From the NCBI RefSeq assembly GCF_056712565.1, contig NZ_CM160072.1: DNA of 64,000 bases. One strand, given 5' to 3'. The translations under genes were made by a program, and so were the position numbers. The notes under the pieces are model-generated. The model was not told the origin of the DNA. It did not search any database and saw nothing but the letters and a program-made list of their open reading frames with translations. Positions within the stretch are counted from its first letter, which is position 1. Every line of letters starts with the position of its first letter. Positions 347-63,539 of the stretch are shown piece by piece.

Positions 347-811
347 ATGGAAAAGAAATTACCCCGCATTAAAGCGCTGCTAACCCCCGGCGAAGTGGCG
401 AAACGCAGCGGTGTGGCGGTATCGGCGCTGCATTTCTATGAAAGCAAAGGGTTGATTACCAGTATCCGTAATAGCGGCAATCAGCGGCGATATAAACGTG
501 ATGTGTTGCGATATGTCGCAATTATCAAAATTGCTCAGCGTATTGGCATTCCGCTCGCAACCATTCGTGAAGCGTTTGGCGTGTTGCCAGAAGGGCATAC
601 GTTAAGTGCGAAAGAGTGGAAACAGCTTTCGTCCCAATGGCGAGAAGAGTTGGATCGGCGCATTCATACCTTAGTGGCGCTGCGTGACGAACTGGATGGA
701 TGTATTGGTTGTGGCTGCCTTTCGCGCAGTGATTGCCCGTTGCGTAACCCGGGCGACCGATTAGGAGAAGAAGGTACCGGCGCACGCTTACTGGAAGATG
801 AACAAAACTAA
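347..811 (+). CDS. soxR: SoxR, MerR-family redox-sensing [2Fe-2S] transcriptional activator
   Basis: 154-aa ORF with N-terminal MerR helix-turn-helix and C-terminal [12 protein letters not shown] cysteine cluster. Confidence 0.95.
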
Positions 812-945
812 AGCGCCACAAGGGCGCTTTAGTTTGTTTTCCGGTCTTTGTCTTTCTCTCTATCCCGCTGGTACACAGGAGGGTTTCCCCCGACGTCAAC
901 ACACCTCATTCGAGCACGTGGTGGAGGTTCCGGTTGGTGTTGATG
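800..945 (-). ncRNA. ryjA: Possible RyjA small RNA, placed by synteny only
   Basis: In K-12 a roughly 140-nt sRNA is annotated antisense and overlapping the soxR 3' end; I cannot verify its sequence from memory, so the coordinates are approximate. Confidence 0.3.
810..840. terminator. Stem-loop directly after the soxR stop codon (AAAGCGCC/GGCGCTTT, loop ACAAG), possible bidirectional terminator
   Basis: 8-bp perfect stem at 810-817/823-830 followed by a T-rich tract on the plus strand. Confidence 0.5.
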
Positions 946-2857: not shown

Positions 2858-4507
2858 ATGGAAATCTTCTTCACCATACTGATAATGACCCTCGTGGTCT
2901 CGCTGTCCGGGGTGGTCACTCGTGTCATGCCCTTTCAGATCCCGCTTCCGCTTATGCAAATCGCCATCGGTGCGCTACTGGCGTGGCCGACGTTTGGTTT
3001 GCATGTGGAGTTTGATCCTGAACTCTTTTTAGTCTTGTTTATCCCGCCGTTGCTGTTCGCTGATGGCTGGAAAACGCCGACCCGTGAATTTCTCGAACAT
3101 GGGCGAGAGATTTTCGGCCTCGCGCTGGCGCTGGTGGTGGTCACCGTGGTCGGCATTGGCTTCCTTATTTACTGGGTGGTGCCGGGCATTCCGCTGATCC
3201 CCGCCTTTGCGCTGGCTGCGGTGCTTTCTCCGACCGATGCTGTAGCGCTCTCCGGGATTGTTGGCGAGGGGCGCATCCCGAAAAAAATCATGGGCATTTT
3301 GCAGGGCGAAGCGTTGATGAATGACGCCTCCGGCCTGGTGTCGTTGAAGTTTGCCGTGGCAGTGGCGATGGGGACAATGATCTTCACCGTCGGCGGTGCG
3401 ACGGTCGAATTTATGAAAGTGGCAATAGGCGGTATTCTCGCCGGTTTTGTGGTGAGCTGGCTGTATGGTCGCTCGCTGCGATTCCTCAGCCGCTGGGGCG
3501 GTGATGAACCCGCGACGCAGATCGTTCTGCTGTTCTTGCTGCCATTCGCTTCTTATCTGATTGCGGAACATATTGGCGTTTCCGGCATCCTCGCTGCGGT
3601 TGCCGCCGGGATGACCATCACCCGCTCCGGTGTGATGCGCCGTGCGCCGCTGGCAATGCGCCTGCGCGCAAACAGCACCTGGGCGATGCTGGAATTTGTC
3701 TTTAACGGCATGGTGTTCCTGCTGTTAGGTCTGCAGTTGCCGGGGATTCTGGAGACGTCGCTGATGGCGGCAGAAATCGACCCTAACGTCGAAATCTGGA
3801 TGCTGTTTACCGATATTATTCTGATATATGCGGCGCTGATGCTGGTCCGTTTCGGCTGGCTGTGGACGATGAAAAAGTTCAGCAACCGCTTCCTGAAGAA
3901 GAAGCCGATGGAGTTTGGTTCGTGGACTACACGAGAAATCCTGATCGCGTCTTTCGCCGGGGTGCGTGGGGCGATCACTCTGGCCGGTGTGCTCTCTATC
4001 CCGCTTCTCTTGCCGGATGGTAACGTCTTCCCTGCGCGCTATGAGTTGGTGTTCCTGGCGGCTGGCGTCATTCTCTTCTCATTGTTTGTCGGCGTGGTGA
4101 TGTTGCCTATTCTGCTACAACACATAGAAGTCGCGGACCATTCGCAACAATTGAAAGAGGAACGTATTGCACGAGCGGCAACGGCAGAAGTGGCGATTGT
4201 GGCGATCCAGAAAATGGAGGAGCGTCTGGCGGCGGATACCGAAGAGAATATCGATAACCAGCTGCTCACAGAGGTTAGTTCTCGCGTCATTGGTAACCTG
4301 CGTCGTCGCGCCGATGGACGTAATGATGTAGAAAGTTCAATCCTGGAAGAGAACCTGGAGCGTCGCTTCCGTCTGGCGGCATTGCGTTCTGAACGTGCTG
4401 AACTGTACCACCTGCGCGCCACGCGGGAGATCAGTAACGAAACGCTGCAAAAATTACTGCACGATCTCGATTTGCTTGAAGCGTTGCTGATTGAGGAAAA
4501 TCAGTAA
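2858..4507 (+). CDS. yjcE: Putative Na+/H+ exchanger, CPA1 family
   Basis: 549-aa membrane ORF with a charged C-terminal cytoplasmic domain; synteny. Confidence 0.85.
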   Translation: MEIFFTILIMTLVVSLSGVVTRVMPFQIPLPLMQIAIGALLAWPTFGLHVEFDPELFLVLFIPPLLFADGWKTPTREFLEHGREIFGLALALVVVTVVGIGFLIYWVVPGIPLIPAFALAAVLSPTDAVALSGIVGEGRIPKKIMGILQGEALMNDASGLVSLKFAVAVAMGTMIFTVGGATVEFMKVAIGGILAGFVVSWLYGRSLRFLSRWGGDEPATQIVLLFLLPFASYLIAEHIGVSGILAAVAAGMTITRSGVMRRAPLAMRLRANSTWAMLEFVFNGMVFLLLGLQLPGILETSLMAAEIDPNVEIWMLFTDIILIYAALMLVRFGWLWTMKKFSNRFLKKKPMEFGSWTTREILIASFAGVRGAITLAGVLSIPLLLPDGNVFPARYELVFLAAGVILFSLFVGVVMLPILLQHIEVADHSQQLKEERIARAATAEVAIVAIQKMEERLAADTEENIDNQLLTEVSSRVIGNLRRRADGRNDVESSILEENLERRFRLAALRSERAELYHLRATREISNETLQKLLHDLDLLEALLIEENQ

Positions 4508-4516
4508 TCTGCATGG

Positions 4517-4536
4517 TTGGCGGGCGAGCCCGCCAA
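4517..4536. terminator. Hairpin TTGGCGGGC-GAG-GCCCGCCAA between the convergent yjcE and LysR-type genes
   Basis: Perfect 9-bp GC-rich stem with 3-nt loop; no long U-tract on either side. Confidence 0.45.
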
Positions 4537-4542
4537 CCCGAC

Positions 4543-5427
4543 TTACTCTGGCGTTAACCAGTATCCTTCACAACAGCTCAGCCACGCGTGGGCAGAGTGG
4601 GAAAGGTAAACGCCCTCACGCCAAATCATTCCTAATTTCCAGCTTAGTTCGCTTTCCAGCGGTAGCCATTTTAAGGTGTTTTTATCTAATCGCTGGCAAA
4701 TGGGTTCCGGCAATATGGCTATTCCGACACCGGCCTGAACCATCGCGGCGAGAAAATCCCATTGCCCGCTGCGAACTGCAATTCTCGGCTTAACGCCATG
4801 TTCATCGAATAACTTCATCAATTGCTTACTTAAGGCAAAATCTTCGTTATAGATAAGTAGAGGATGTTCCGCCAATGTCTCCGGTGAGACGGCATCACAT
4901 TCAAGCCATTTACCTGAATGTGGCGTCAGTACACATAGTGGATGACTAAACAGCGATAACGTTGTCAGGCCGCTTTCTTCTACTGGCAGGGCTGTCAGTG
5001 CCATATCCAGTTCACCGTTCATCACCGCTTGTTGTACCGTCAGACCACCAAACTCCGAAATTTTCAATTCTACGCCGGGGTAACGCTGGCGAAAAAGGCC
5101 AATCGGCCCGGCCATCAACATCCCAACCATCGGCGGGATTCCCAGCCGCAAAACGCCGGTTTTAAGCTGATTGATATCGCTAAGCTCAGCTTCCAGTTGC
5201 CGAAACTCAGCCAGTAAAGCCAGCCCGCGCTCAAATACGACGCGACCAGTATCAGTGAGAAGCAGCCGACGACCATCGCGGATCAACAATATACAGTTCA
5301 GCTCATCTTCGAGATTCTTCAGCATCTTGCTGATAGTTGGTTGGGTGACAAACAACTTCTCCGCTGCGCGGGTGAAGCTTTGCTGGCGCACGACTTCGAC
5401 AAAATAACGCAGCGTTCTGATATCCAT
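4543..5427 (-). CDS. LysR-family transcriptional regulator
   Basis: 294-aa ORF; N-terminal MDIRTLRYFVEVVRQQSFTRAAEKLFVTQPTISKMLKNLE is a typical LysR helix-turn-helix; divergent from the LrgA-like gene. Confidence 0.85.
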   Translation of the reverse strand: MDIRTLRYFVEVVRQQSFTRAAEKLFVTQPTISKMLKNLEDELNCILLIRDGRRLLLTDTGRVVFERGLALLAEFRQLEAELSDINQLKTGVLRLGIPPMVGMLMAGPIGLFRQRYPGVELKISEFGGLTVQQAVMNGELDMALTALPVEESGLTTLSLFSHPLCVLTPHSGKWLECDAVSPETLAEHPLLIYNEDFALSKQLMKLFDEHGVKPRIAVRSGQWDFLAAMVQAGVGIAILPEPICQRLDKNTLKWLPLESELSWKLGMIWREGVYLSHSAHAWLSCCEGYWLTPE

Positions 5428-8701: not shown

Positions 8702-8907
8702 TTGCCGAATGTAGGCCGGATAAGGCGTTATACGCCGCATCCGGCAATCAATGCCTGATGCGACGCTGTCGCGTCTTATCAGGCCTACAGCCGTTGCCGA
8801 ATGTAGGCCGGATAAGGCGTTCACGCCGCATCCGGCAACCAGCGCCTGATGCGCCGCTGTCGCGTCTTATCAGGCCTACAAACCGTTACCGACTCGCATC
8901 CGGCAAT
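8702..8907. repeat. BIME: tandem duplication of a 92-bp unit of two REP-like palindromes (about 2.2 copies)
   Basis: Unit starting at 8702 repeats at 8794 with a few substitutions, followed by a partial third copy; contains GCCGGATAAGGCGTT..ACGCCGCATCCGGC and GCCTGATGCG..CGTCTTATCAGGCCTAC. Confidence 0.85.
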
Positions 8908-17046: not shown

Positions 17047-17639
17047 AACAGCCCCAAATACCGGTGAAAATGCTGACAACACTCACGATTTTGATGGTAT
17101 TTCTCTGTGTCGGCAGTTATCTGTTAAGTCCAAAATGGCAGGCTGTACGTACGGAGTATCAGCGTCAGCGCGATCCGCTGCATCAGTTTGCCAGCCAGCA
17201 AACCCCGGAAGCGCAGCTTCAGGCATTGCAGGATAAAATCCGTGCTAATCCACAAAACAGCGAACAGTGGGCGTTACTGGGCGAGTATTATCTGTGGCAA
17301 AACGATTACAGCAATTCGCTGCTGGCGTACCGTCAGGCGTTGCAACTACGTGGTGAGAACGCTGAACTGTATGCGGCGCTGGCGACGGTGCTGTATTACC
17401 AGGCCAGCCAACATATGACCGTCCAGACTCGCGCAATGATCGACAGAGCCCTCGCGCTGGACTCTAACGAAATCACCGCTCTGATGCTGCTGGCTTCCGA
17501 TGCGTTTATGCAGGCGAACTACGCGCAAGCCATCGAACTATGGCAAAAAGTGATGGATCTCAACTCACCCCGGATCAACCGGACACAGCTGGTCGAGTCG
17601 ATTAATATGGCGAAATTGTTGCAGCGGAGATCAGATTAA
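17043..17639 (+). CDS. nrfG: TPR-repeat haem lyase accessory protein
   Basis: 198-aa ORF starting [15 protein letters not shown] overlap with nrfF stop. Confidence 0.9.
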
Positions 17640-20242: not shown

Positions 20243-20947
20243 TTAATCCATCCGATGTTCCCCCTTTTCCATGGCGTCGCGATCAAAAAATCGCTGAATT
20301 TTTCCCTCGGACATCAATGCCGCTCGATCAGACATATGCGCGATGACATCGGCATCGTGACTGACCAGCAGATATGTCATTTGGTGTTCCAGCTTAAGTT
20401 GATTCAACAAATTAAGGATTTCCGCTTGTACCGACATATCCAACGCCGAGGTGGGTTCATCCAGCAGAAGAAGTTGTGGTCGTAACAACAGGGCGCGAGC
20501 AATAACCACACGTTGCCGTTGACCACCGGAAAGCTGGTGTGGGTAGCGACGAGCGGCGTCGAAAGGCAAGCCAACCTGTTCCAGTGCAGTCTGGACGCGT
20601 TTTTCTATTTCTCTTTCGCCACGAATTTTGAGTGGTTCAGCCAGCGTTCGCCACAGAGTATGATTGGGATGCAACGAGGCATAGGGATCCTGAAACACCA
20701 TTTGCACATTGCGGCGGAGATCGCCTTGAAAACGCATTCCTGGTTTGATGGTGTGCCCAAACAGTGACACCTGACCGTGCCAGTCGCGCTGTAATCCAGC
20801 AATTACGCGCAAAATCGTGGATTTTCCGCAGCTTGATTCGCCAATTAAACTAAATGTCTCTCCGGCATTAACCGAAAAACTGGCGGCAGAAACTGCGGTT
20901 TTCTCAGCAAAAGTCACCTGTAAGTGATTAATTTCAACAATCGTCAT
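20243..20947 (-). CDS. ABC transporter ATP-binding protein (short NikE/DppF-like)
   Basis: 234-aa ORF with Walker A GESSCGKST, signature LSGGQRQR, Walker B LLLDEPTSALD. Confidence 0.85.
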   Translation of the reverse strand: MTIVEINHLQVTFAEKTAVSAASFSVNAGETFSLIGESSCGKSTILRVIAGLQRDWHGQVSLFGHTIKPGMRFQGDLRRNVQMVFQDPYASLHPNHTLWRTLAEPLKIRGEREIEKRVQTALEQVGLPFDAARRYPHQLSGGQRQRVVIARALLLRPQLLLLDEPTSALDMSVQAEILNLLNQLKLEHQMTYLLVSHDADVIAHMSDRAALMSEGKIQRFFDRDAMEKGEHRMD

Positions 20948-21770
20948 GGTATTTCTCCGGCGTCATTGCCGTCCTGTCCAGCGTCGGCAGCATCTGCCCG
21001 TAAGTTTGTGCATTTGGGCGGCAAGTCCACAGTGTGCGCGTGTAAGGATGCGTTGCTGTAGGTAGCGCAGCAGCGTGCATTTCATCCACCTTATTTCCCT
21101 GATACATCACCAGCACCCGATGGCAAAATTGGGCAACTAATGGCAGGTCGTGACTGATCAGCAACATTGCCATCTGACGTTGTTCACACTGGGTAACCAG
21201 CAGTTCCAGAATCTGATTACGCAGGCGCACATCCAGTGCTGATGTTGGCTCATCGGCAATCAATACCCGGGGATCGTTGATGAGCGCAATTGCAATCATC
21301 ACTCGCTGCCCCATGCCGCCAGAAAGTTCACGAGGATAGCTTTGCAGTACTCGCGTATTGAGGCCGACAGCCTGAATTGCGGTGTTTATTTTCTCTTCTT
21401 TCTCGCGGCGGTTCAGACGTTGATGGAGCGTAAGCGCCTCTTCCAGTTGCGCTTTTACTGTCTTTACTGGATTAAGCGCGTAACGCGGATCTTGCAATAC
21501 CATCGCGATATCGTTACCGCGCAACTGTTGCCATCCACGCGCGTTAAGGGTGAGTGCATCACGCCCCAGAATGTTAAGTGTGTCCGCGGTTACTACACCC
21601 GGTTTACGCACCAGCCCCATCAGGGCGCGGGCGGTCATGGACTTACCTGAACCCGACTCACCGACCAGCGCCAGACGTTCATTGCCTAATGTAAAACTGA
21701 CATTGTTGACGACCCGGGACTCCGGATAATCGACGCAGAGATTGTTGATACTAAGACGTGAGTCAGTCAT
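20934..21770 (-). CDS. ABC transporter ATP-binding protein (short NikD/DppD-like)
   Basis: Walker A GESGSGKS, signature LSGGMGQR, Walker B LIADEPTSALD; start taken at MTDSRLSINN, giving an ATGACTGA overlap with the upstream permease stop. Confidence 0.85.
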   Translation of the reverse strand: MTDSRLSINNLCVDYPESRVVNNVSFTLGNERLALVGESGSGKSMTARALMGLVRKPGVVTADTLNILGRDALTLNARGWQQLRGNDIAMVLQDPRYALNPVKTVKAQLEEALTLHQRLNRREKEEKINTAIQAVGLNTRVLQSYPRELSGGMGQRVMIAIALINDPRVLIADEPTSALDVRLRNQILELLVTQCEQRQMAMLLISHDLPLVAQFCHRVLVMYQGNKVDEMHAAALPTATHPYTRTLWTCRPNAQTYGQMLPTLDRTAMTPEKYHDDC

Positions 21771-22596
21771 GTTGAGGCTCCAGAACATCGCGCAAGCCAT
21801 CACCCAGCAGATTAAAGGCCAGACTGGCAATTAAGATAATTGCGCCGGGAGCGGCGGCAATCCACCATTGATCAAAAATGACCTGCATACCGTCGGCGAT
21901 CATGGCTCCCCATTCCGCCATTGGCGGGCGAGCACCAAGCCCAAGAAAACCCAGGCCAGCAGCCGCCAGAATGATACCCGCTAAATCCAGTGCCAGACGG
22001 ACAATGGCAGATGGCAGGCACAATGGTAAAATATGACCAGCCAGCAGACGCCTGCCGCGGATGCCCATCATTTCTGCGGCGGCAAGATAATCACTGTGTC
22101 GCAGACGTTGGATCTCACTCCGTGCCTGACGCGCATAAGCAGGCCAGGTGGTTAATGCCAGGGCCAGTGCGCCGTTAACCAGCCCCGGCCCCAGCATGGC
22201 AACAAAAGCAAAAGCCAGAATTAAACGCGGCATTGACATTACTACGTCAGTAAAACGCATCAGCACGCGTTCCAGCCAGCCGCCGTAGTACCCGGCTAAA
22301 ATGCCAATCAGCAGACCGACCGGGAGTGTAATGATTGTCACCAATGCCACCAGCCCCAGTGCCGGGCGGCTGCCGTAGATTAAACGTGAAAGTAGGTCTC
22401 GTCCGTAACTGTCAGTGCCGAGCCAGTGCTGACGACTCGGTGCTTGTAACCGCGCCGCCGCATCCTGCCAGTTAGGATCGTGAGGTGCCAGCCACGGCGC
22501 GAAGAGCGCAATTAGCATTAATAACAGGATAATTATCAACCCGCAAAACGCGGCGGGTGAATGGCGTAAACGGCGTAAAAAGAGAAACATCGGCAT
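21763..22596 (-). CDS. ABC transporter permease (NikC/DppC-like)
   Basis: 277-aa polytopic ORF; start overlaps the stop of the upstream permease by 1 nt. Confidence 0.85.
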   Translation of the reverse strand: MPMFLFLRRLRHSPAAFCGLIIILLLMLIALFAPWLAPHDPNWQDAAARLQAPSRQHWLGTDSYGRDLLSRLIYGSRPALGLVALVTIITLPVGLLIGILAGYYGGWLERVLMRFTDVVMSMPRLILAFAFVAMLGPGLVNGALALALTTWPAYARQARSEIQRLRHSDYLAAAEMMGIRGRRLLAGHILPLCLPSAIVRLALDLAGIILAAAGLGFLGLGARPPMAEWGAMIADGMQVIFDQWWIAAAPGAIILIASLAFNLLGDGLRDVLEPQHD

Positions 22597-23645
22597 CAGC
22601 GTAACCTCGGATCGGTCAGCCGGACCAGCAGGTCGGTTAAGTTATTTATCAACACAAAGCAGACGCCAATCAGCAGCGTTCCTCCCATGATTGCTGTGGT
22701 ATCACCCGCGAAGAGCGCTGTAGTGAGGTAGCGCCCAATACCTGGCCATGAAAAGACGGTTTCTGTCAGTACCGCGCCTTCCAGCATTGATGTATAGGCG
22801 AGGGCGATAACGGTGAGCAAGGTGCCGCGAATGTTGGGTAAAACATGACGTAGCAAAATTGTCATCTCGCTGGCCCCTTTGGCGCGCGCCAGCAGAATAT
22901 ATTCTTTATTCATTTCGCCAAGACAGGCGGAACGAGTCAGGCGCGTAATACTGGCGAGCGAGAAGTACGCCAGTAATAAAACCGGAAGTATCAAATGGTT
23001 GATTGCATTGGTAAATGCCTCGCGATCGCCAGAAAGCCACGTATCAATCAGCGCAAATCCGCTGCGGGGTTCTATGGTGAATTGATAAATATCATCCAGC
23101 CTGCCCGGCCCGGCACTCCATTGCAGTCTGGCGTAGAACAGCGCCAGCATCAGCAGACCAAGCCAAAAAACAGGGACGGAATTTCCCAGTAGAGTTAATG
23201 TTCGCACGGTGAAATCCAGCGGAGAACCGACATAACGGGCGCAAAGTACACCCGCAATGACGCCGACAACAGCACCGACAATAAGCGCCAACGTTGCCAG
23301 TTCAATGGTCGCCGGGAATACTGATAGCAAGTCCTGGAGTACCGGTTGCCCGGTGGAGCTGGCGATGCCCAGATCGCCGTGTGCCAGATTCATCAGGTAA
23401 TGCCAGAACTGGACGGCTAACGGCTGATCCAATCCTAACTGGTGGCGTACCTGATCATAGGTGGACTGGCTGGCGTGATCGCCAACGATTTGTAGTACGC
23501 GATCGACCGGTGAGAGAGCCGAAAGCGCAAAGGTAATCAGCAGCAGGCCGAGTAGCGTCAGAGCAACGGTAAACAGCCCTTGCAACAGCGCGAGCAGAGG
23601 GCGCTTGCCTCGCCATCTCGCGCGAGTGGAAAAAACGACAGACAT
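22596..23645 (-). CDS. ABC transporter permease (NikB/DppB-like)
   Basis: Polytopic ORF; start uncertain, ATG at 23645 (349 aa) preferred over the ATG at 23738 because two strong stem-loops occupy 23660-23740. Confidence 0.8.
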   Translation of the reverse strand: MSVVFSTRARWRGKRPLLALLQGLFTVALTLLGLLLITFALSALSPVDRVLQIVGDHASQSTYDQVRHQLGLDQPLAVQFWHYLMNLAHGDLGIASSTGQPVLQDLLSVFPATIELATLALIVGAVVGVIAGVLCARYVGSPLDFTVRTLTLLGNSVPVFWLGLLMLALFYARLQWSAGPGRLDDIYQFTIEPRSGFALIDTWLSGDREAFTNAINHLILPVLLLAYFSLASITRLTRSACLGEMNKEYILLARAKGASEMTILLRHVLPNIRGTLLTVIALAYTSMLEGAVLTETVFSWPGIGRYLTTALFAGDTTAIMGGTLLIGVCFVLINNLTDLLVRLTDPRLR

Positions 23646-23744
23646 GATCTTTCCATACAGTGATAAATCAGCGGCTGGCCTGCAATACAGGCCAGCCCTG
23701 GTACCGCGCCCGGTAACAGGGCTGGACGCGAGTTGCATACAGGG

Positions 23745-25313
23745 TTATTTGGTTACCTGATCAAACCAGACCATATCGGCATTCAACCCTTGTTGATACC
23801 CCTGCACATTATCACGCATGACAATTTGCGTTTTGCCTTGATCAATAAAGACATACGGGGAACTACGTTGTAGTTCTTGTTGCATTTTCTTATACAAATC
23901 AAGACGTTTAGTGCTATCAGGTTCAGCGATGGCCGCCAGCGTTTCTTTGTTCAGTTCCGGGATTTTCCAGCCGTTTAACCCGGCAACGGTGCTGGATTTG
24001 CCATCGTTATAGGCGAAAGAGCTGGCGTTGGAATGTGCGTCAAAATAATCAGGCAACCACATACGAATGGCCCCCTGATGCTGGTGGGCGCGAACGCGAG
24101 AGTAGACCTGACTCCCTGCGGCTGGCAGCAAATCAACTTTTACACCGCCCTGAGCAAAGCTGGCCTGAATTGACTGCGCGATGGTAATAAATGGCGGTTT
24201 ATTTTCGACATCAAGCGTGAAGTGCGGGTCTTTGATTCCGGCTTTAGCGAGGATCTCTTTTGCTTTGGCTGGATTAAAGGTAAACGGTGTTTCTTCCAGT
24301 GCTCCAGGAAAGCCCACGGGCAGGAAACTTTGATGGGTAAAATATTGTCCTTTTAAGAGATTTTTGGTGATGCCGTCGTAATCGACCAACCAGCGAGCGG
24401 CCTCCCAGAACGCAGGATTACTCATCAGCGGGTTATCCTTGTTACCGGTATTGAAGGCCAGGTAGTTCTGTTCGGCGGAGGCAATGCTCATCACTTTTAC
24501 GCCAGGTTTACCCTGTAATGCATCGATTTGATCGGCTCCCAGATCACGAGCCATATCAGCATCACCTTGTTGGATCAGCAGGCGACGCGTTGCCGGATCG
24601 GGAACATTTTTGATGATGACGTTTTTCAGTTTCGGGGCGCCGGTTGGTGAGCTGGCGTTGGCTTCCATCACGATGGCCTGATGCGGTTGGTAAGTACGCA
24701 TTTTAAACGCGCCGCTGCCAGCGGAATGCATCTTCAGCCATTCATTACCAAAGTCGTTATTTTTGGCGTTTGGCGCAACCAGCTTCTCGTCAACAATTGA
24801 GGCGATTGGTGTGGAGAGAATATTCAGTGCCAGCGCCGGGCTGACGTCGGCACTCCATTGCACCTGGACGGTATGGTCATCGATTTTCTTCAACTGGCTG
24901 GCGATATTTTCCGGCTGCCATCCCAGCACATTGAGAATAAACGCACCGGATTTATTCAGTGTGACAGCCCGGACATAAGAGTAAATCACATCTTCCGGGC
25001 GTACCGGATTACCAGAGGCAAATTTCGCATCGCTTTTCAGTTTTATGGTTAGCGTTTTGGCTGCGGGGTCAGCCTGCCAACTTTCCGCCAGAATCGGAGT
25101 GATTTTCGTCGGATCATTACGGTCCGGTTGTACTACGCGTTGATACAGACTTGGTACAGTCTGAATACTTGAGAGTTCATTAGCTTCTGCCGGGTCCAGA
25201 CTCACAATATCATCCAGTCCCTGGGCTACAACCAACGTATTAGGCGGTGTAGCGGCAACGGTTGTGGCGGAAATTGTGCTTAAAACCAGTAAAGGTAATA
25301 GTTTTTTAATCAT
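23745..25313 (-). CDS. Periplasmic substrate-binding protein, family 5 (peptide/nickel/opine type)
   Basis: 522-aa ORF with signal peptide MIKKLLPLLVLSTISATTVAA; size and architecture like NikA/DppA/OppA. Confidence 0.85.
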   Translation of the reverse strand: MIKKLLPLLVLSTISATTVAATPPNTLVVAQGLDDIVSLDPAEANELSSIQTVPSLYQRVVQPDRNDPTKITPILAESWQADPAAKTLTIKLKSDAKFASGNPVRPEDVIYSYVRAVTLNKSGAFILNVLGWQPENIASQLKKIDDHTVQVQWSADVSPALALNILSTPIASIVDEKLVAPNAKNNDFGNEWLKMHSAGSGAFKMRTYQPHQAIVMEANASSPTGAPKLKNVIIKNVPDPATRRLLIQQGDADMARDLGADQIDALQGKPGVKVMSIASAEQNYLAFNTGNKDNPLMSNPAFWEAARWLVDYDGITKNLLKGQYFTHQSFLPVGFPGALEETPFTFNPAKAKEILAKAGIKDPHFTLDVENKPPFITIAQSIQASFAQGGVKVDLLPAAGSQVYSRVRAHQHQGAIRMWLPDYFDAHSNASSFAYNDGKSSTVAGLNGWKIPELNKETLAAIAEPDSTKRLDLYKKMQQELQRSSPYVFIDQGKTQIVMRDNVQGYQQGLNADMVWFDQVTK

Positions 25314-25487
25314 ATGCTTCCCAATCCCTGAAATTACTTTGAGGTTATTAATATGCTATCAGACGGGGTTTCGCTGCATTAATCGCGCCAGAATATCCCG
25401 TTAATAGAACGAGTTAAACGGTCGATGATTTCTCACCTTACCGAAATTTTGTTTATCAAATGTAAAGTATTATTACGTTAGGCCGCG

Positions 25488-25515
25488 ATGAGAATTGAGT
25501 AAAGATAATTCTCAT
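25488..25515. promoter_or_regulatory. Perfect palindrome ATGAGAATT-N10-AATTCTCAT upstream of the ABC operon, candidate operator
   Basis: 9-bp perfect inverted repeat arms about 175 bp upstream of the substrate-binding protein start codon. Confidence 0.3.
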
Positions 25516-25608
25516 TTGCAATCGTGACTGGAATAGAAGAACAACCGAGAAGACGTCGCTAATAACCAGGATGGGCTGGTTTGACTGCGCAGGTATGTAT
25601 AAAAAAAT

Positions 25609-25644
25609 CCGGAAACAGAGAGTCGTTTCCGGATTGATACAAAG
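25609..25644 (-). terminator. Rho-independent terminator of fdhF
   Basis: Perfect 10-bp stem ATCCGGAAAC/GTTTCCGGAT with 8-nt loop, followed on the minus strand by a run of 7-8 U. Confidence 0.7.
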
Positions 25645-25687: not shown

Positions 25688-27835
25688 TTACGCCAGTGCC
25701 GCTTCGCGCAGGCGAGTTTTCAACTTGTTGTACTCGTCAATCACGTACTGCTCGGCGGCGCGCTGATCGGCGATCGGCTCGACGCGCACGGCGCAGTATT
25801 TGTATTCCGGCGTTTTCGTAATCGGGCTTAAGTTTTCGGTCACCAGCTCGTTACAGGCACCAATCCACCACTGGTAGGTCATGTAAATCGCCCCTTTGTT
25901 CGGACGATCGCTGACCTGCGCACGGGTGATAATTTTGCCTTTACGCGAGTGCACCCAAACCAATGCCTCATCTTCAATACCCAGACGTTTGGCGTCTTCG
26001 GTATTGATTTGTGCGTAGCCAGGTTCATCAGCCAGCGCCGCCAGTGCCGCACAGTTACCGGTCATCGAACGGCAAGAGTAGTGACCAACTTCACGCACCG
26101 TTGACAGTACCATCGGGTACTCGTCGGTGAGTTTGTCGATTGGCGCTACCCAGTCGCAGGTGAAGAACTGCGCCAGACCGTTCGGGGTATCAAACTTCTC
26201 TTTAAACAGATAAGAAGTCCCCTGATCGGCATCTGAAGTATCGCGGCAAGGCCACTGAATGAAGCCCAGTTCGCCCATTTTCTCGTAAGTCGCACCGTAG
26301 AAATCCGGGCACAGATGACGCAACTCGTCCCAGATCTCCTGGGTGTTGTTGTAGTGCATCGGATAACCCATACGAGTGGCAATTTCACTGATGATTTGCC
26401 AGTCCGTTTTCAGATCCCACTTCGGCTCAACCGCCTTGAAGAAACGCTGGAAGCCACGGTCAGCCGCAGTAAACACGCCTTCATGCTCGCCCCACGACGT
26501 TGACGGTAAAATGACATCCGCCGCCGACGCGGTTTTGGTCATAAAGATGTCCTGAACGATAACCAGTTCCAGATCTTCAAAGGCTTTACGTACTGCCGAC
26601 AGTTCCGCGTCAGTTTGCAGCGGATCTTCGCCCATAATGTACGCCGCTCTCACTTCACCATGCGCCACGCGGTGCGGCAGCTCGCTGATACGATAACCGG
26701 TATGAGCAGGCAGGCTTTCCACGCCCCAGGCTTTGGCAAATTTCTCGCGGTTAGCCGGATCTTTCACGTACTGATAGCCCGGATACGTATCCGGCAGCGC
26801 GCCCATATCGCAGGCACCCTGCACGTTGTTCTGACCACGAACCGGGTTTACACCCGCATGTGGCTTACCGAGGTTACCGGTCAGCATCGCGAGGCTGGTC
26901 AGAGAACGCACGGTTTCCACGCCCTGATAGAACTGGGTTACCCCCATGCCCCACAGGATGGCGGCGCTTTCCGCCTGGGCATACATCCGCGCCGCCTGAC
27001 GAATCTCACTGGCGCTGACGCCGGTGATATCTTCAACCGACTCCGGCGTGTAGCCTTCAACGATTTTACGATACTCTTCAAAGCCTTCTGTACGGGAAGC
27101 GACGAACGCTTTGTCGTACAGATTTTCTTCAATAATGACATGGCCCATCGCATTCAACAGCGCGATGTTCGAGCCGTTTTTCAATGCAATGTGCATGTCA
27201 GCAATGCGCGCGGTTTCAATTTTACGCGGATCGCAGACGATAATTTTCGCCCCGTTACGTTTAGCGTTAATTACGTGATTCGCCACGATTGGGTGGGAAT
27301 CCGCCGGGTTATACCCGAAAACGAACACTAAATCGGTATTATCAATTTCGTTAATAGCATTGCTCATTGCGCCATTACCGACCGATTGGTGCAGACCTGC
27401 AACCGATGGGCCGTGTCAGACACGAGCGCAGCAGTCAACGTTATTGGTACCAATAACGGCGCGCGCAAATTTTTGCATTACATAGTTGGTTTCGTTACCC
27501 GTACCGCGCGAGGAGCCGGTCGTCTGGATGGCATCCGGACCGTACTTCTCTTTGATGGCGCTCAGGCGCTCGGCAACGTAATTCAGTGCCTCATCCCAGG
27601 AAACAGGTTCGAGTTTGCCGCCACGCTGGCGACGGATCATGGGGGTTTTCAGGCGCGGGGTCAGGATCTGGGTATCGTTAATGAAGTCCCAGCCATAATA
27701 ACCCTTCAGACACAGGGTACCCTGGTTGGTTTTCCCCTGCGCTGCCTCCGCCCGGACGATTTTGCCGTTATCGACGACCAGGTTGATTTTGCAACCTGAT
27801 GCGCAATAGGGGCAAACCGTGACGACTTTTTTCAT
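25688..27835 (-). CDS. fdhF: Formate dehydrogenase H, selenocysteine-containing molybdoenzyme; in-frame TGA (Sec) at 27417-27419
   Basis: The 139-aa and 559-aa ORFs are contiguous in one frame across a single TGA (..DCCARV-U-HGPSVAGLHQ..); N-terminal CPYCASGC Fe-S motif; total 715 aa. Confidence 0.9.
27370..27416 (-). other. fdhF SECIS stem-loop directing selenocysteine insertion at the TGA
   Basis: mRNA immediately 3' of the UGA (CACGGCCCAUCGGUUGCAGGUCUGCACCAAUCGGUCGG) is the hairpin-forming segment known as the fdhF SECIS. Confidence 0.6.
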
Positions 27836-27977: not shown

Positions 27978-28032
27978 AGTTTTGACGTGACGAAACGAAA
28001 TACCGCGTGACAGCCATCACGCGGTAGACATT

Positions 28033-50792: not shown

Positions 50793-51635
50793 TCAGATAA
50801 AGTGCTTACGCAACCGTTGAGAGAGGAAATCCAGCAGGCTGACCGTGACGATGATGAGCACCATCAGGGCGCAGGTTTGCTGGAACTGGAAACCGCGAAT
50901 CGCTTCCCACAGCGTGACGCCGATCCCGCTCGCGCCAACCATACCGACGACGGTCGCCGAGCGGACGTTGGATTCGAAGCGATAGAGAGAGTAGGAAATC
51001 AGCAGCGGCATGACCTGCGGTAGTACGCCGTAGAGGATCTCTTCCAGCTTGTTGGCACCGGTAGCGCGAATGCCCTCCACCGGGCCGGGTTCAATCGCTT
51101 CTACCGCTTCGGAAAGCAGTTTGGAAAGTACGCCGGTGGTGTGGATAAACAGCGCCAGCACGCCAGCGAACGGGCCGAGGCCGACGGCGACCACGAACAG
51201 CATGGCGAAGACTATTTCGTTAATGGCGCGGCAGGCGTCCATCAGGCGGCGTACAGGTTGGTAGACCCACCACGGTACCAGGTTTTCAGCGCTCATCAGG
51301 CCGAAGGGGATGGAGAGAACCACCGCCAGCGCGGTGCCCCAGACGGCGATTTGCAGCGTGACGGCCATTTCGGTGAGGTAATCCTGCCACTGGCTGAAAT
51401 CGGGCGGGAAGAAGTCGGCGGCGAACGTCGCCATGTTGCCGCCATCTTTAATCAGCGTAAGCGGTGCCATTTCCGCGCCCTGCCACGAGACGACCAGCAC
51501 GGCGATAACAACGGCCCAGCTCAGAAGCGAGAACCAGCTGCGCTTGGGTGGGGCGATGGTGATGGTTTGCATGTTTGGCTCCGGTCTGTAGGCCGGATAA
51601 GGTGCTTGCACCGCATCCGGCATCAACGTCTGCAC
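50793..51635 (-). CDS. phnE: Phosphonate ABC transporter permease; open reading frame uninterrupted
   Basis: Continuous 280-aa ORF (internal alternative start [10 protein letters not shown] possible) with polytopic topology. Confidence 0.85.
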
Positions 51636-51680
51636 ATTGTCGGATGCGACGCCGGGGCGTCTTATCCGACCTACGATTTA
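51585..51680. repeat. REP element pair between phnE and phnD
   Basis: GTAGGCCGGATAAGG..CATCCGGC and CGGATGCGACG..CGTCTTATCCGACCTAC palindromes. Confidence 0.8.
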
Positions 51681-54147: not shown

Positions 54148-54230
<83 letters not shown>

Positions 54231-59850: not shown

Positions 59851-59900
59851 GCTGAAACGGATGGCCTGATGTGACGCTGTCTAATCAGGTCAATTGAACT

Positions 59901-59917
59901 CTTAAGGTTCACTTAAT
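59901..59917 (+). promoter_or_regulatory. PmrA (BasR) box CTTAAG-GTTCA-CTTAAT upstream of pmrR
   Basis: Direct hexamer repeat with 5-bp spacer matching the YTTAAK-N5-YTTAAK PmrA consensus, 45 bp upstream of the pmrR ATG. Confidence 0.6.
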
Positions 59918-59961
59918 CTCTGACGCGCATACTCTCCTCCAGGTTAACGGAGGAGAGTGCA

Positions 59962-60051
59962 ATGAAAAACCGTGTTTATGAAAGTTTAACTACCGTGTTC
60001 AGCGTGCTGGTGGTCAGCAGCTTTCTTTATATCTGGTTTGCCACGTACTGA
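59962..60051 (+). CDS. pmrR: PmrR, 29-aa membrane peptide (PmrA-activated regulator of LpxT)
   Basis: ORF MKNRVYESLTTVFSVLVVSSFLYIWFATY with one transmembrane helix, preceded by GGAGGAGAG; its 3' end overlaps the basS 3' end on the opposite strand. Confidence 0.6.
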   Translation: MKNRVYESLTTVFSVLVVSSFLYIWFATY

Positions 60052-61127
60052 TCTTTTTTCAGCCGTATCCAGGCCCGCGTGCCGGAAGTCTCTTGCCGGT
60101 TTTGCAGGAAAAACTGCCCGTGATGCAACTGTGTAATGCGGCTGACAATACTTAACCCCAGACCAATCCCGCCATAACGGCTGTCCATTCGTACAAACGC
60201 TTTACTCAACTCCCCGCATTTACTCTCATCAATACCCGGCCCTTCATCTTCAACGGCCATGACCGCTCCGCCATCTTCTTGCAGCTTAATCATAATGTTG
60301 CTGCCTTGTGGGCTATAACGATGGGCGTTTTCTACCAGGTTTCGCAATAACATCCGCAGCAGGGTTGCATCACCCTGAACGGTGATGTCGGCGGCGCTCT
60401 CTGGCAATAGCAGGGTTTGCTGGCGCTGGTCGAGCATGGTACTAAGTTCGTCATACGAGGGGAGAATGACATCTTCCAGCAGTTTTACATGTTGATAATT
60501 ACCGGAAGAAAATGACTGTCCGGCACGCGCCAGTTGCAGCAGCTGGGAGACGCTCTCCATCATCTGATCAAGTCGTGCCACTAACGGTGCTACATCAATG
60601 TGATGCGTTTTCGCCAGCAGTTCCAGATGCAAACGCACCCCCGCCAGTGGTGTTCGCAGTTCGTGCGCGACGTCAGCGGTAAACAACCTTTCGTTATCCA
60701 GCGTGCTGGTCAGGCGACTGACCAGATCGTTTAACGCCGAAACCACCGCATCGATTTCGAGGGTGGCGCTATGAATGGCAATGGGCGTTAAGTTATCGGC
60801 GGTGCGCGCTTCCAGCTCTTTTTGCAGCTCCGCCAGCGGTCGGGTGATGCGGCGTACCGCCTGATAGCAGATAAATAGCGTCAGGCTAACCATAAAGACG
60901 CCGGGGACAATCAGGCTGGCGACCGCCTCGCGGATCTCACGCATGATGTGGCGATCGTTGTTGCGATTGTCGCGTAGCGCCTGCTCAAACAGCTGAATCT
61001 GCTCGGTACTTTCATGCCACAGCCAGAAGACGCTGATCAGCTCAAACACCAACAAAATGGCCCCGATGGTCAATATCAGCCGTTGGCGCAGCGATATTGG
61101 TCGGCGCAGAAAACGCATCAGATTCAA
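60027..61127 (-). CDS. basS: Sensor histidine kinase BasS/PmrB
   Basis: HAMP and HisKA (HELRTPL) motifs; start could be 61127 or the ATG at 61118. Confidence 0.9.
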   Translation of the reverse strand: MNLMRFLRRPISLRQRLILTIGAILLVFELISVFWLWHESTEQIQLFEQALRDNRNNDRHIMREIREAVASLIVPGVFMVSLTLFICYQAVRRITRPLAELQKELEARTADNLTPIAIHSATLEIDAVVSALNDLVSRLTSTLDNERLFTADVAHELRTPLAGVRLHLELLAKTHHIDVAPLVARLDQMMESVSQLLQLARAGQSFSSGNYQHVKLLEDVILPSYDELSTMLDQRQQTLLLPESAADITVQGDATLLRMLLRNLVENAHRYSPQGSNIMIKLQEDGGAVMAVEDEGPGIDESKCGELSKAFVRMDSRYGGIGLGLSIVSRITQLHHGQFFLQNRQETSGTRAWIRLKKDQYVANQI

Positions 61128-63482: not shown

Positions 63483-63499
63483 ATTAAGCCAACCTTAAG
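63483..63499 (-). promoter_or_regulatory. PmrA (BasR) box CTTAAG-GTTGG-CTTAAT upstream of eptA
   Basis: Minus-strand direct hexamer repeat with 5-bp spacer, 47-63 bp upstream of the eptA ATG at 63436. Confidence 0.6.
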
Positions 63500-63539
63500 T
63501 TCTTAAGGTTGGCTTTTATGTTTGCTTGATTAAGGGGAA

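Follow-up and report, generated by a model that had tools for sequence, protein, structure and literature searches.

The spacer behind the first gene of a five-gene ABC-transporter operon in Escherichia coli encodes strong hairpins, which raises the question of whether these structures serve the expression of the operon or are simply tolerated at a permissive site. An earlier note on the DNA analysed here (a stretch of 64,000 nucleotides, hereafter the window) had pointed out two stem-loops in this interval, had proposed that they stabilize the upstream transcript segment or attenuate read-through, and had used them to argue for a short form of the following permease.

An accessory operon with a single spacer

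The region is 100% identical to E. coli ATCC 11775 in genome comparison. On the minus strand, fdhF (with its SECIS element) is followed by a five-gene ABC-transporter operon of the Opp/Dpp/Nik family (20243–25313) and then by yjcO. [quoted passage not shown] The first gene (23745–25313, minus strand) encodes a periplasmic substrate-binding protein of family 5 (Opp/Dpp/Nik-type; 522 aa), annotated by PGAP as "ABC transporter substrate-binding protein" (WP_000592281.1), and ends with a TAA stop codon at 23745–23747; the second (22596–23645, minus strand) encodes a DppB/NikB-like permease of 349 aa, whose start codon is placed by PGAP at the ATG at 23645. The binding protein matches the NCBIfam models of NikA, DppA, and GsiB, every one below the curated cut-off; the same is true of all NCBIfam matches among the proteins of the operon, and none of them assigns a substrate. 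The operon is an accessory trait that is present in about a fifth of the complete genomes of E. coli (1043 of 5426; two copies are plasmid-borne), mostly in strains such as ATCC 11775, NU14, and JJ1886. Literature searches for the operon (yjcO, fdhF, ABC transporter) yielded nothing specific to it.

Overlaps of 1, 8, and 14 nt join the last four genes at their three junctions, and the only junction with a spacer is that between the binding protein and the permease (23646–23744). Its length of 99 nt, counted from the TAA to the PGAP-annotated ATG, agrees with the roughly 100 nt given in the earlier note. A sequence scan of the minus strand of the spacer detected no promoter-like site that could serve as an internal promoter. 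Downstream of fdhF, the minus strand has a canonical terminator (25606–25635; tail UUUUUUAUACA, score −4.88), and a separate promoter for the ABC operon must therefore lie in the region 25314–25605.

The reading frame of the permease is open without interruption from an in-frame ATG further upstream (23736–23738, minus strand; 380 aa), and if translation began there, the spacer would be coding and the hairpins incidental. This is barely credible, because PGAP calls the ATG at 23645 in three independent genomes, and because the N-termini of the orthologues all lie at or downstream of the short start. Among the 15 orthologous operons in other species (80–98% protein identity), ten encode an MS(A/V)V... 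N-terminus at the equivalent ATG, the remaining five start there or further inside (MSD, MPH, MPQ, MSH), and none extends upstream. The sequence before the short start is not alignable among the orthologues, and the 12 variable columns in the putative extension of 31 codons fall on codon positions 1, 2, and 3 in the proportion 5/4/3, without the third-position bias of a coding region. Moreover, the upstream ATG lies just 6 nt past the stop codon of the preceding gene and has no SD-like sequence before it. The translation start region of the short form (23643–23654, minus strand) comprises GGAAAG (23654–23649), AUC, and the AUG (23645–23643), and the region before the AUG is homologous to ACGGAATAACC-ATG of the orthologues in Klebsiella, Raoultella, and Enterobacter. 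On the strength of annotation, orthologue N-termini, and codon-position pattern, we reject a coding extension from 23738. That the permease starts at the ATG at 23645, as had been argued from the hairpins, is well supported by these comparisons.

Hairpins of the spacer and their conservation

Both inverted repeats described in the earlier note lie between the stop codon of the binding-protein gene and the start of the permease gene. The first, here called SL2 (23673–23697, minus strand; GGCUGGCCUG(U)-AUU-(G)CAGGCCAGCC), has arms (23673–23682 and 23688–23697) that are 100% complementary over 10 bp and separated by 5 nt, exactly as reported; in the mRNA sense, a closing U–G pair brings the stem to 11 pairs, 8 of which are G–C. 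At −21.7 kcal/mol, SL2 is the most stable perfect hairpin within the 64-kb window. Twelve mononucleotide shuffles averaged 0.25 perfect stems of at least 10 bp with loops of 3–8 nt, whereas the window itself has seven such sites; stems of this type are present beyond chance. Directly 3′ of SL2 follows an A/U-rich single-stranded linker (GCUGAUUUAUCA; 23661–23672, minus strand). Another tail-less hairpin of the same type is a perfect 10-bp palindrome of 80% G+C (GGTTGGCGGGC-GA-GCCCGCCAACC; 4515–4538), which has a U-tract neither before nor after it. It takes up the 35 nt that separate two convergent open reading frames (2858–4507 on the plus strand and 4543–5427 on the minus strand).

The second repeat, SL1 (23692–23725, minus strand), has arms of 15 nt (23692–23706 and 23711–23725) that are 93% complementary (one mismatch) and enclose a loop of 4 nt. 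The 9-bp stem of the earlier note (CCAGCCCUG/CAGGGCUGG) exists as the outer part of this repeat, but it is not conserved among alleles, being complete in none but the window allele, which is a minority one. Likewise, the two stem-loops are both real but do not stand side by side: read along the window, the hexamer GGCTGG (23692–23697) belongs both to the 3′ arm of SL2 and to the 5′ arm of SL1, and these shared 6 nt make the full forms of SL1 and SL2 mutually exclusive. RNA folding, which had been suggested as a check, gave −44.1 kcal/mol for the interval of 111 nt, well beyond the −32.5 ± 3.5 kcal/mol of dinucleotide shuffles (z = −3.27; 1 of 200 shuffles equal). In the minimum-energy fold, SL2 is whole and SL1 is shortened. 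The inner pairs of SL2 have pairing probabilities of 0.97–1.0 and the outer pair one of 0.64 in the window allele, for which a forced full SL1 reaches −41.2 kcal/mol versus the minimum of −44.1 kcal/mol. An alternative upstream hairpin, SL1′ (23704–23731, minus strand; arms 23731–23722 and 23713–23704, 8-nt loop), starts 13 nt past the stop codon of the binding-protein gene and is clear of SL2.

Five distinct alleles of the spacer were compared: that of the window, the majority allele of E. coli, and those of E. coli 14EC007, E. albertii, and a metagenome copy (one of two in the set; the other is identical to the 14EC007 allele). The window allele is found unchanged in 151 of 1044 records, the majority allele in 876. 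SL2 is unchanged in all five alleles. In the majority allele, a C-to-A change puts a mismatch into the outer stem of SL1, and in the E. albertii-type alleles this stem has lost two to three pairs; its pairs 31–33/52–54 are broken in one to four of the five alleles. Folded alone, SL1 drops from −26.8 kcal/mol in the window allele to −20.2 kcal/mol in the majority allele and to between −6 and −13 kcal/mol in the E. albertii-type alleles, and the fold with the full SL1 is also the weaker one in the majority allele (−34.6 vs −42.5 kcal/mol). For SL1′, 96% of the cells are paired across the five alleles; two pairs are changed on both sides (G–C to U–G or the reverse; G–C/G–U/A–U), and the remaining stem substitutions all preserve or improve pairing. 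Among the common structures, the combination of SL1′ and SL2 has the lowest energy in each of the alleles (−35.7 to −41.4 kcal/mol), and it is also the minimum-energy fold of the 67-nt core in all of them, including the window allele. The covariation score of SL1′ is reached by 28 of 500 shuffles, which is weak statistics based on five sequences. The pattern suggests a preference for SL1′ over SL1 as the preserved upstream hairpin and falls short of proof.

The distribution of differences along the locus is suggestive of constraint between SL2 and the AUG. Between the alleles of the window and of E. albertii, differences affect 16–19% of the third codon positions of the flanking genes and 10–11 of the first 43 positions of the spacer, but only one of the 56 nt that extend from SL2 up to the AUG; divergence resumes just past the AUG. 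Under a uniform rate (0.17, as in third codon positions), the probability is about 0.01 if SL2 is taken by itself and about 4 × 10⁻⁴ for the whole block of 56 nt; these values are optimistic, because identical runs of 41–77 nt occur also inside the coding regions and the rate is not uniform, and the argument draws on essentially one deep pair of alleles. The operon allele of E. coli 14EC007 (NZ_CP024131.1) is 99.3–99.6% identical to that of E. albertii and only about 91–94% identical to the window allele, suggesting an inter-species transfer or recombination of the locus. The last ATPase gene of the operon is annotated as frameshifted in this strain.

Relationship to REP elements and to other spacers

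Stem-loops after the binding-protein genes of E. coli are classically REP/BIME elements. The spacer resembles them in position and shape, as an extragenic G+C-rich imperfect palindrome within a transcription unit that follows a binding-protein gene, and the REP core does occur at the same junction in three orthologous spacers (Raoultella and Enterobacter ENT03). Nevertheless, such a resemblance is generic and insufficient for membership, and the view that the spacer element is a REP, as in malE–malF, is hardly tenable. In a search of 5,426 E. coli genomes (E ≤ 10), the 99-nt spacer was located at 1045 places in 1044 records with a median of one per genome, whereas REPs are dispersed in many copies per genome. 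The family consensus (core GCCGGATAAGGCG or GTAG head) is missing; the core GCCGGRTAAGGCG has no occurrence in 23646–23744 and seven elsewhere in the window. When the spacer was compared with the REPs of the window and the spacers of the orthologues (blastn-short), the coding flanks alone gave matches. Rfam returned only noise for the spacer (E = 4.5–7.6), with no match to naRNA4/REP325, and a covariance model of SL1′ and SL2 recovered no further copy, neither in the window, searched with filters switched off, nor at the orthologous loci. The window does contain true REPs that can be recognized as such, as documented by four Rfam matches to naRNA4 (REP325-type BIME; regions 8714–8876, 51591–51671, and 54148–54225). 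Copy number, sequence comparison, Rfam, and covariance model thus rule out a REP/BIME identity for E. coli. Judged by sequence, the element is lineage-specific (E. coli and E. albertii), single-copy, and not a REP. The other Rfam matches in the window are the SECIS element of fdhF (27369–27423, minus strand), the sRNA sraL (804–944, minus strand), and STnc630 (59893–60058, plus strand).

The stem of SL2 also turns up elsewhere. A scan of 241 million metagenome records for GGCTGGCCTG-N5-CAGGCCAGCC, i.e., the SL2 stem with any loop, yielded 17 stretches, two of which represent the same Escherichia operon; the rest are located in unrelated contexts and have other loops or flanks. On one contig (Ga0068862_100248494, 42% G+C; L026:1537–1561), the entire 25 nt of SL2 are identical, including the loop, and are followed by TTTGAATTTT downstream of DnaJ-like and MerR-like open reading frames. 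This site is probably an independent terminator, whose identity to SL2 would be a coincidence at roughly the 1–3% level, given 15 unrelated matches to the stem. Within the window, GGCTGGCCTG-like words number 20 versus 5.2 expected. The exact matches are the two arms of SL2 and one site at 17400, and most of those with one mismatch end in CTGGCCTG. We attribute the excess, as a conjecture, to the word usage of E. coli coding sequences and not to copies of a repeat.

Outside Escherichia, the same junction has a different content. The orthologues with 80–86% identity stem from Klebsiella, Raoultella, Enterobacter, Kosakonia, Yokenella, and Buttiauxella, and their spacers are not alignable with that of Escherichia, except for the ribosome-binding region at the AUG. 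GC-rich hairpins of unrelated sequence are nevertheless present in 14 of the 15 orthologous spacers of other Enterobacteriaceae. The three spacers of Raoultella and Enterobacter ENT03 contain the REP core as an inverted pair; a long spacer with palindromes that are REP-like as judged by eye is found in Klebsiella oxytoca/michiganensis and Enterobacter JUb54; R. terrigena, K. indica, and others have single palindromes; Kosakonia has a 9-bp hairpin; and Buttiauxella has a large nested structure (CCCTCTCCC/GGGAGAGGG). Only Yokenella, with a spacer of 21 nt, has no hairpin. At its 3′ end (GCTGAT..CACTGTA..GGAA..ATG), the spacer of Escherichia is homologous to those of Klebsiella and Enterobacter (GCTGATAACACTGTAC TTTTTACCAACGGAATAACC ATG), whereas the hairpin-bearing 5′ parts are unrelated; this contrast suggests an exchange of hairpin modules upstream of a translation-initiation region that stayed conserved.

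Paralogous operons of E. coli K-12 are occupied in the same manner. The dppA–dppB spacer contains a BIME and two further hairpins. The oppA–oppB spacer (85 nt, versus 99 nt here) contains a unique perfect hairpin that is likewise not a REP (12 bp, compared with 10–11 bp in SL2; z = −4.1) and is followed by GUGUCUGAUUUUUAUC (L040:312–402). In both spacers, CUGAUUU(UU)AUC stands a few bases beyond the hairpin and precedes the ribosome-binding site of the permease. The tail of the oppA–oppB hairpin (GUCUGAUUUUUAUC) resembles the sequence downstream of SL2 (GCUGAUUUAUC), and this common tail may represent a shared signal for processing or weak termination. The stems, by contrast, lack homology, and the relationship between the proteins is a distant one (OppA model, E = 3.5 × 10⁻¹³). 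The literature searched contained no experimental study of the oppA–oppB hairpin. The junction behind the binding-protein gene is repeatedly occupied by structure of varying sequence.

Putative function of the spacer

In operons with differential decay, a structure located 3′ of the binding-protein gene blocks 3′–5′ exonucleases after cleavage of the distal RNA; malE is stabilized by a 3′ structure, and among five ABC operons of E. coli, the stabilized gene is invariably that of the binding protein (PMC5927463). The argument that a binding protein is required in stoichiometric excess has also been made elsewhere (PMC4474525). We infer from these cases and from the comparative picture that the proposal of the earlier note, stabilization of the upstream segment or attenuation of read-through, fits the present locus. 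The reading towards which we lean, with some reservation, is that SL1′ and SL2 act as a barrier to exonucleases, possibly with minor termination, and thereby raise the level of the binding protein over those of the membrane and ATPase subunits.

In the proposed mechanism, the operon would be transcribed as one RNA that carries SL1′ (23731–23704) and SL2 (23697–23673) at the 3′ boundary of the binding-protein cistron. An endonuclease would cut either within a poorly protected permease/ATPase segment or within the A/U-rich linker 3′ of SL2. The linker contains GA|UUU and fits the RNase E motif RN|WUU quoted in PMC5927463, although this motif is common by chance and constitutes weak evidence. The 3′-to-5′ exonucleases (PNPase, RNase II) would then remove the distal RNA and stall at SL2 and SL1′, leaving a stable, translatable mRNA of the binding protein; some RNA polymerases might also stop at SL2, despite its poor U-tract. 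The net effect would be an excess of binding protein over membrane and ATPase subunits, as in malE–malF, and the hairpins of Escherichia would be a solution of their own to a need that is met by REPs or other hairpins in related operons.

Several features agree with a protective 3′ hairpin. A stable structure is situated at the 3′ boundary of a gene whose product is needed in excess, ahead of genes whose products are needed less, and it is kept in relatives, albeit with low statistical power. SL2 supports the barrier because it occupies the one junction of the operon where the genes do not overlap, and the position of the binding-protein gene as the first of the operon, which is confirmed by NCBIfam and PGAP, counts in the same direction. 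Against it stands that Yokenella manages with a hairpin-free spacer of 21 nt, that the junction may gather hairpins and REPs simply as the only insertion-tolerant place of the operon, and that sense and antisense strands of the window allele fold about equally well.

The closest precedent is the intercistronic REP stabilizer of malE–malF (Newbury et al. 1987, as summarized in PMC5927463), also a stable hairpin right after a binding-protein gene that comes first in an ABC operon. The barrier to 3′–5′ exonucleases has been demonstrated for mal and is presumed for SL1′ and SL2. The two elements differ in that the mal element is a REP with hundreds of dispersed copies, whereas SL1′/SL2 is single-copy and unrelated in sequence. 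In the differentially decaying operons of Dar & Sorek (2018; PMC5927463), stable hairpins are likewise found between a stabilized 5′ gene and less stable downstream genes, an order of stability that is presumed for the present operon. Those cases are backed by decay and term-seq data, and most of their structures are located inside the downstream coding region, whereas SL1′ and SL2 are fully intergenic.

If SL2 were chiefly a leaky intrinsic (Rho-independent) terminator, it would give rise to a monocistronic binding-protein mRNA in the style of gltI–gltJ, where a leaky terminator has been documented in the spacer between binding protein and permease (PMC4474525). This explanation is unlikely but deserves to be weighed first. 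SL2 has a G+C-rich hairpin and ranks first among the terminator-like sites in a lenient scan (11 pairs, 8 G–C, 5 T in the next 8 bases), which is the only scan that it passes. Its U-tract does not follow directly after the stem but is offset and interrupted (GCUGAUUUAU). Its tail (GCUGAUUUAUCACUG) scores −2.04, versus −3.1 to −4.9 for the strand-appropriate tails of four terminator-type hairpins in the window (805–835, sraL; 25606–25635, fdhF-distal; 28001–28026; 63486–63515), and falls short of the default tail cut-off of TransTermHP, which is usually −2.5. The U-tract rules out a canonical terminator, and SL2 appears to be a weak terminator at best. Among the comparison sites, the terminator-like palindrome at 28001–28026 is followed by a T-rich tail on the minus strand (−4.11) but not on the plus strand (−1.97). 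While the gltI–gltJ spacer is also structured and gives a monocistronic mRNA of the binding protein, its element is a true terminator, conserved as such, that releases SroC, an Hfq-bound sRNA sponge (PMC4474525); compared with such an sRNA derived from a 3′ UTR, SL2 has a poor U-tail, and nothing so far suggests an sRNA.

Rather improbable is a neutral passenger, i.e., a template-switch palindrome or decayed mobile repeat that is tolerated in the only free junction without any regulatory role. Quite different elements occupy this junction in different genera, some of them with a REP core, and one orthologue has none at all; in addition, the threefold occurrence of CCAGCC/GGCUGG/CCAGCC suggests an origin by local duplication and inversion. 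However, the shuffles indicate that a perfect, G+C-rich palindrome of 10 bp is rare by chance (0.25 per 64 kb), SL2 is still perfect between alleles with about 17% synonymous divergence, and every change in the stem of SL1′ preserves or improves pairing.

That the hairpins act downstream, either as a 5′ structure that protects a processed permease/ATPase RNA or by tuning the initiation of permease translation, is quite improbable. It would account for the near-invariance of the block from SL2 to the AUG, protective 5′ structures have been described in decay-regulated operons (PMC5927463), and the minimum-energy fold weakly pairs the linker with the AUG region. On the other hand, SL2 ends 27 nt before the AUG, the GGAAAG/AUG region is mostly free, and the stoichiometric logic favours less permease, not more.

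Still less credence is due to a conformational switch in which GGCUGG pairs either upstream (SL1 as an "anti-terminator") or downstream (SL2) and thereby regulates read-through, because the mutually exclusive structures, which are close in energy in the window allele, are not conserved among relatives: the majority allele has a weaker competing stem and the E. albertii-type alleles have lost it, which counts against the switch. The absence of any ligand-binding or leader-peptide feature and of an Rfam match beyond noise likewise speaks against it and against a riboswitch or known RNA family. More broadly, it is very improbable that in B2 E. coli and E. albertii the CCAGCC/GGCUGG/CCAGCC series functions as an RNA switch or that the hairpins end a stable 3′-UTR fragment with a trans-acting role as an SroC-like sponge or sRNA.

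The feature is real, it is probably functional, and it is ordinary, representing one more hairpin after a binding-protein gene in ABC operons, a well-known class. In practical terms, its analysis lends support to the short start of the permease at 23645. If SL1′ and SL2 are indeed an exonuclease barrier, the operon would provide another case of the long-known principle that the binding protein is produced in excess of the membrane subunits by means of a hairpin after the first cistron, and the unrelated hairpins at one and the same junction across genera suggest that it is the structure, not the sequence, that has been retained.
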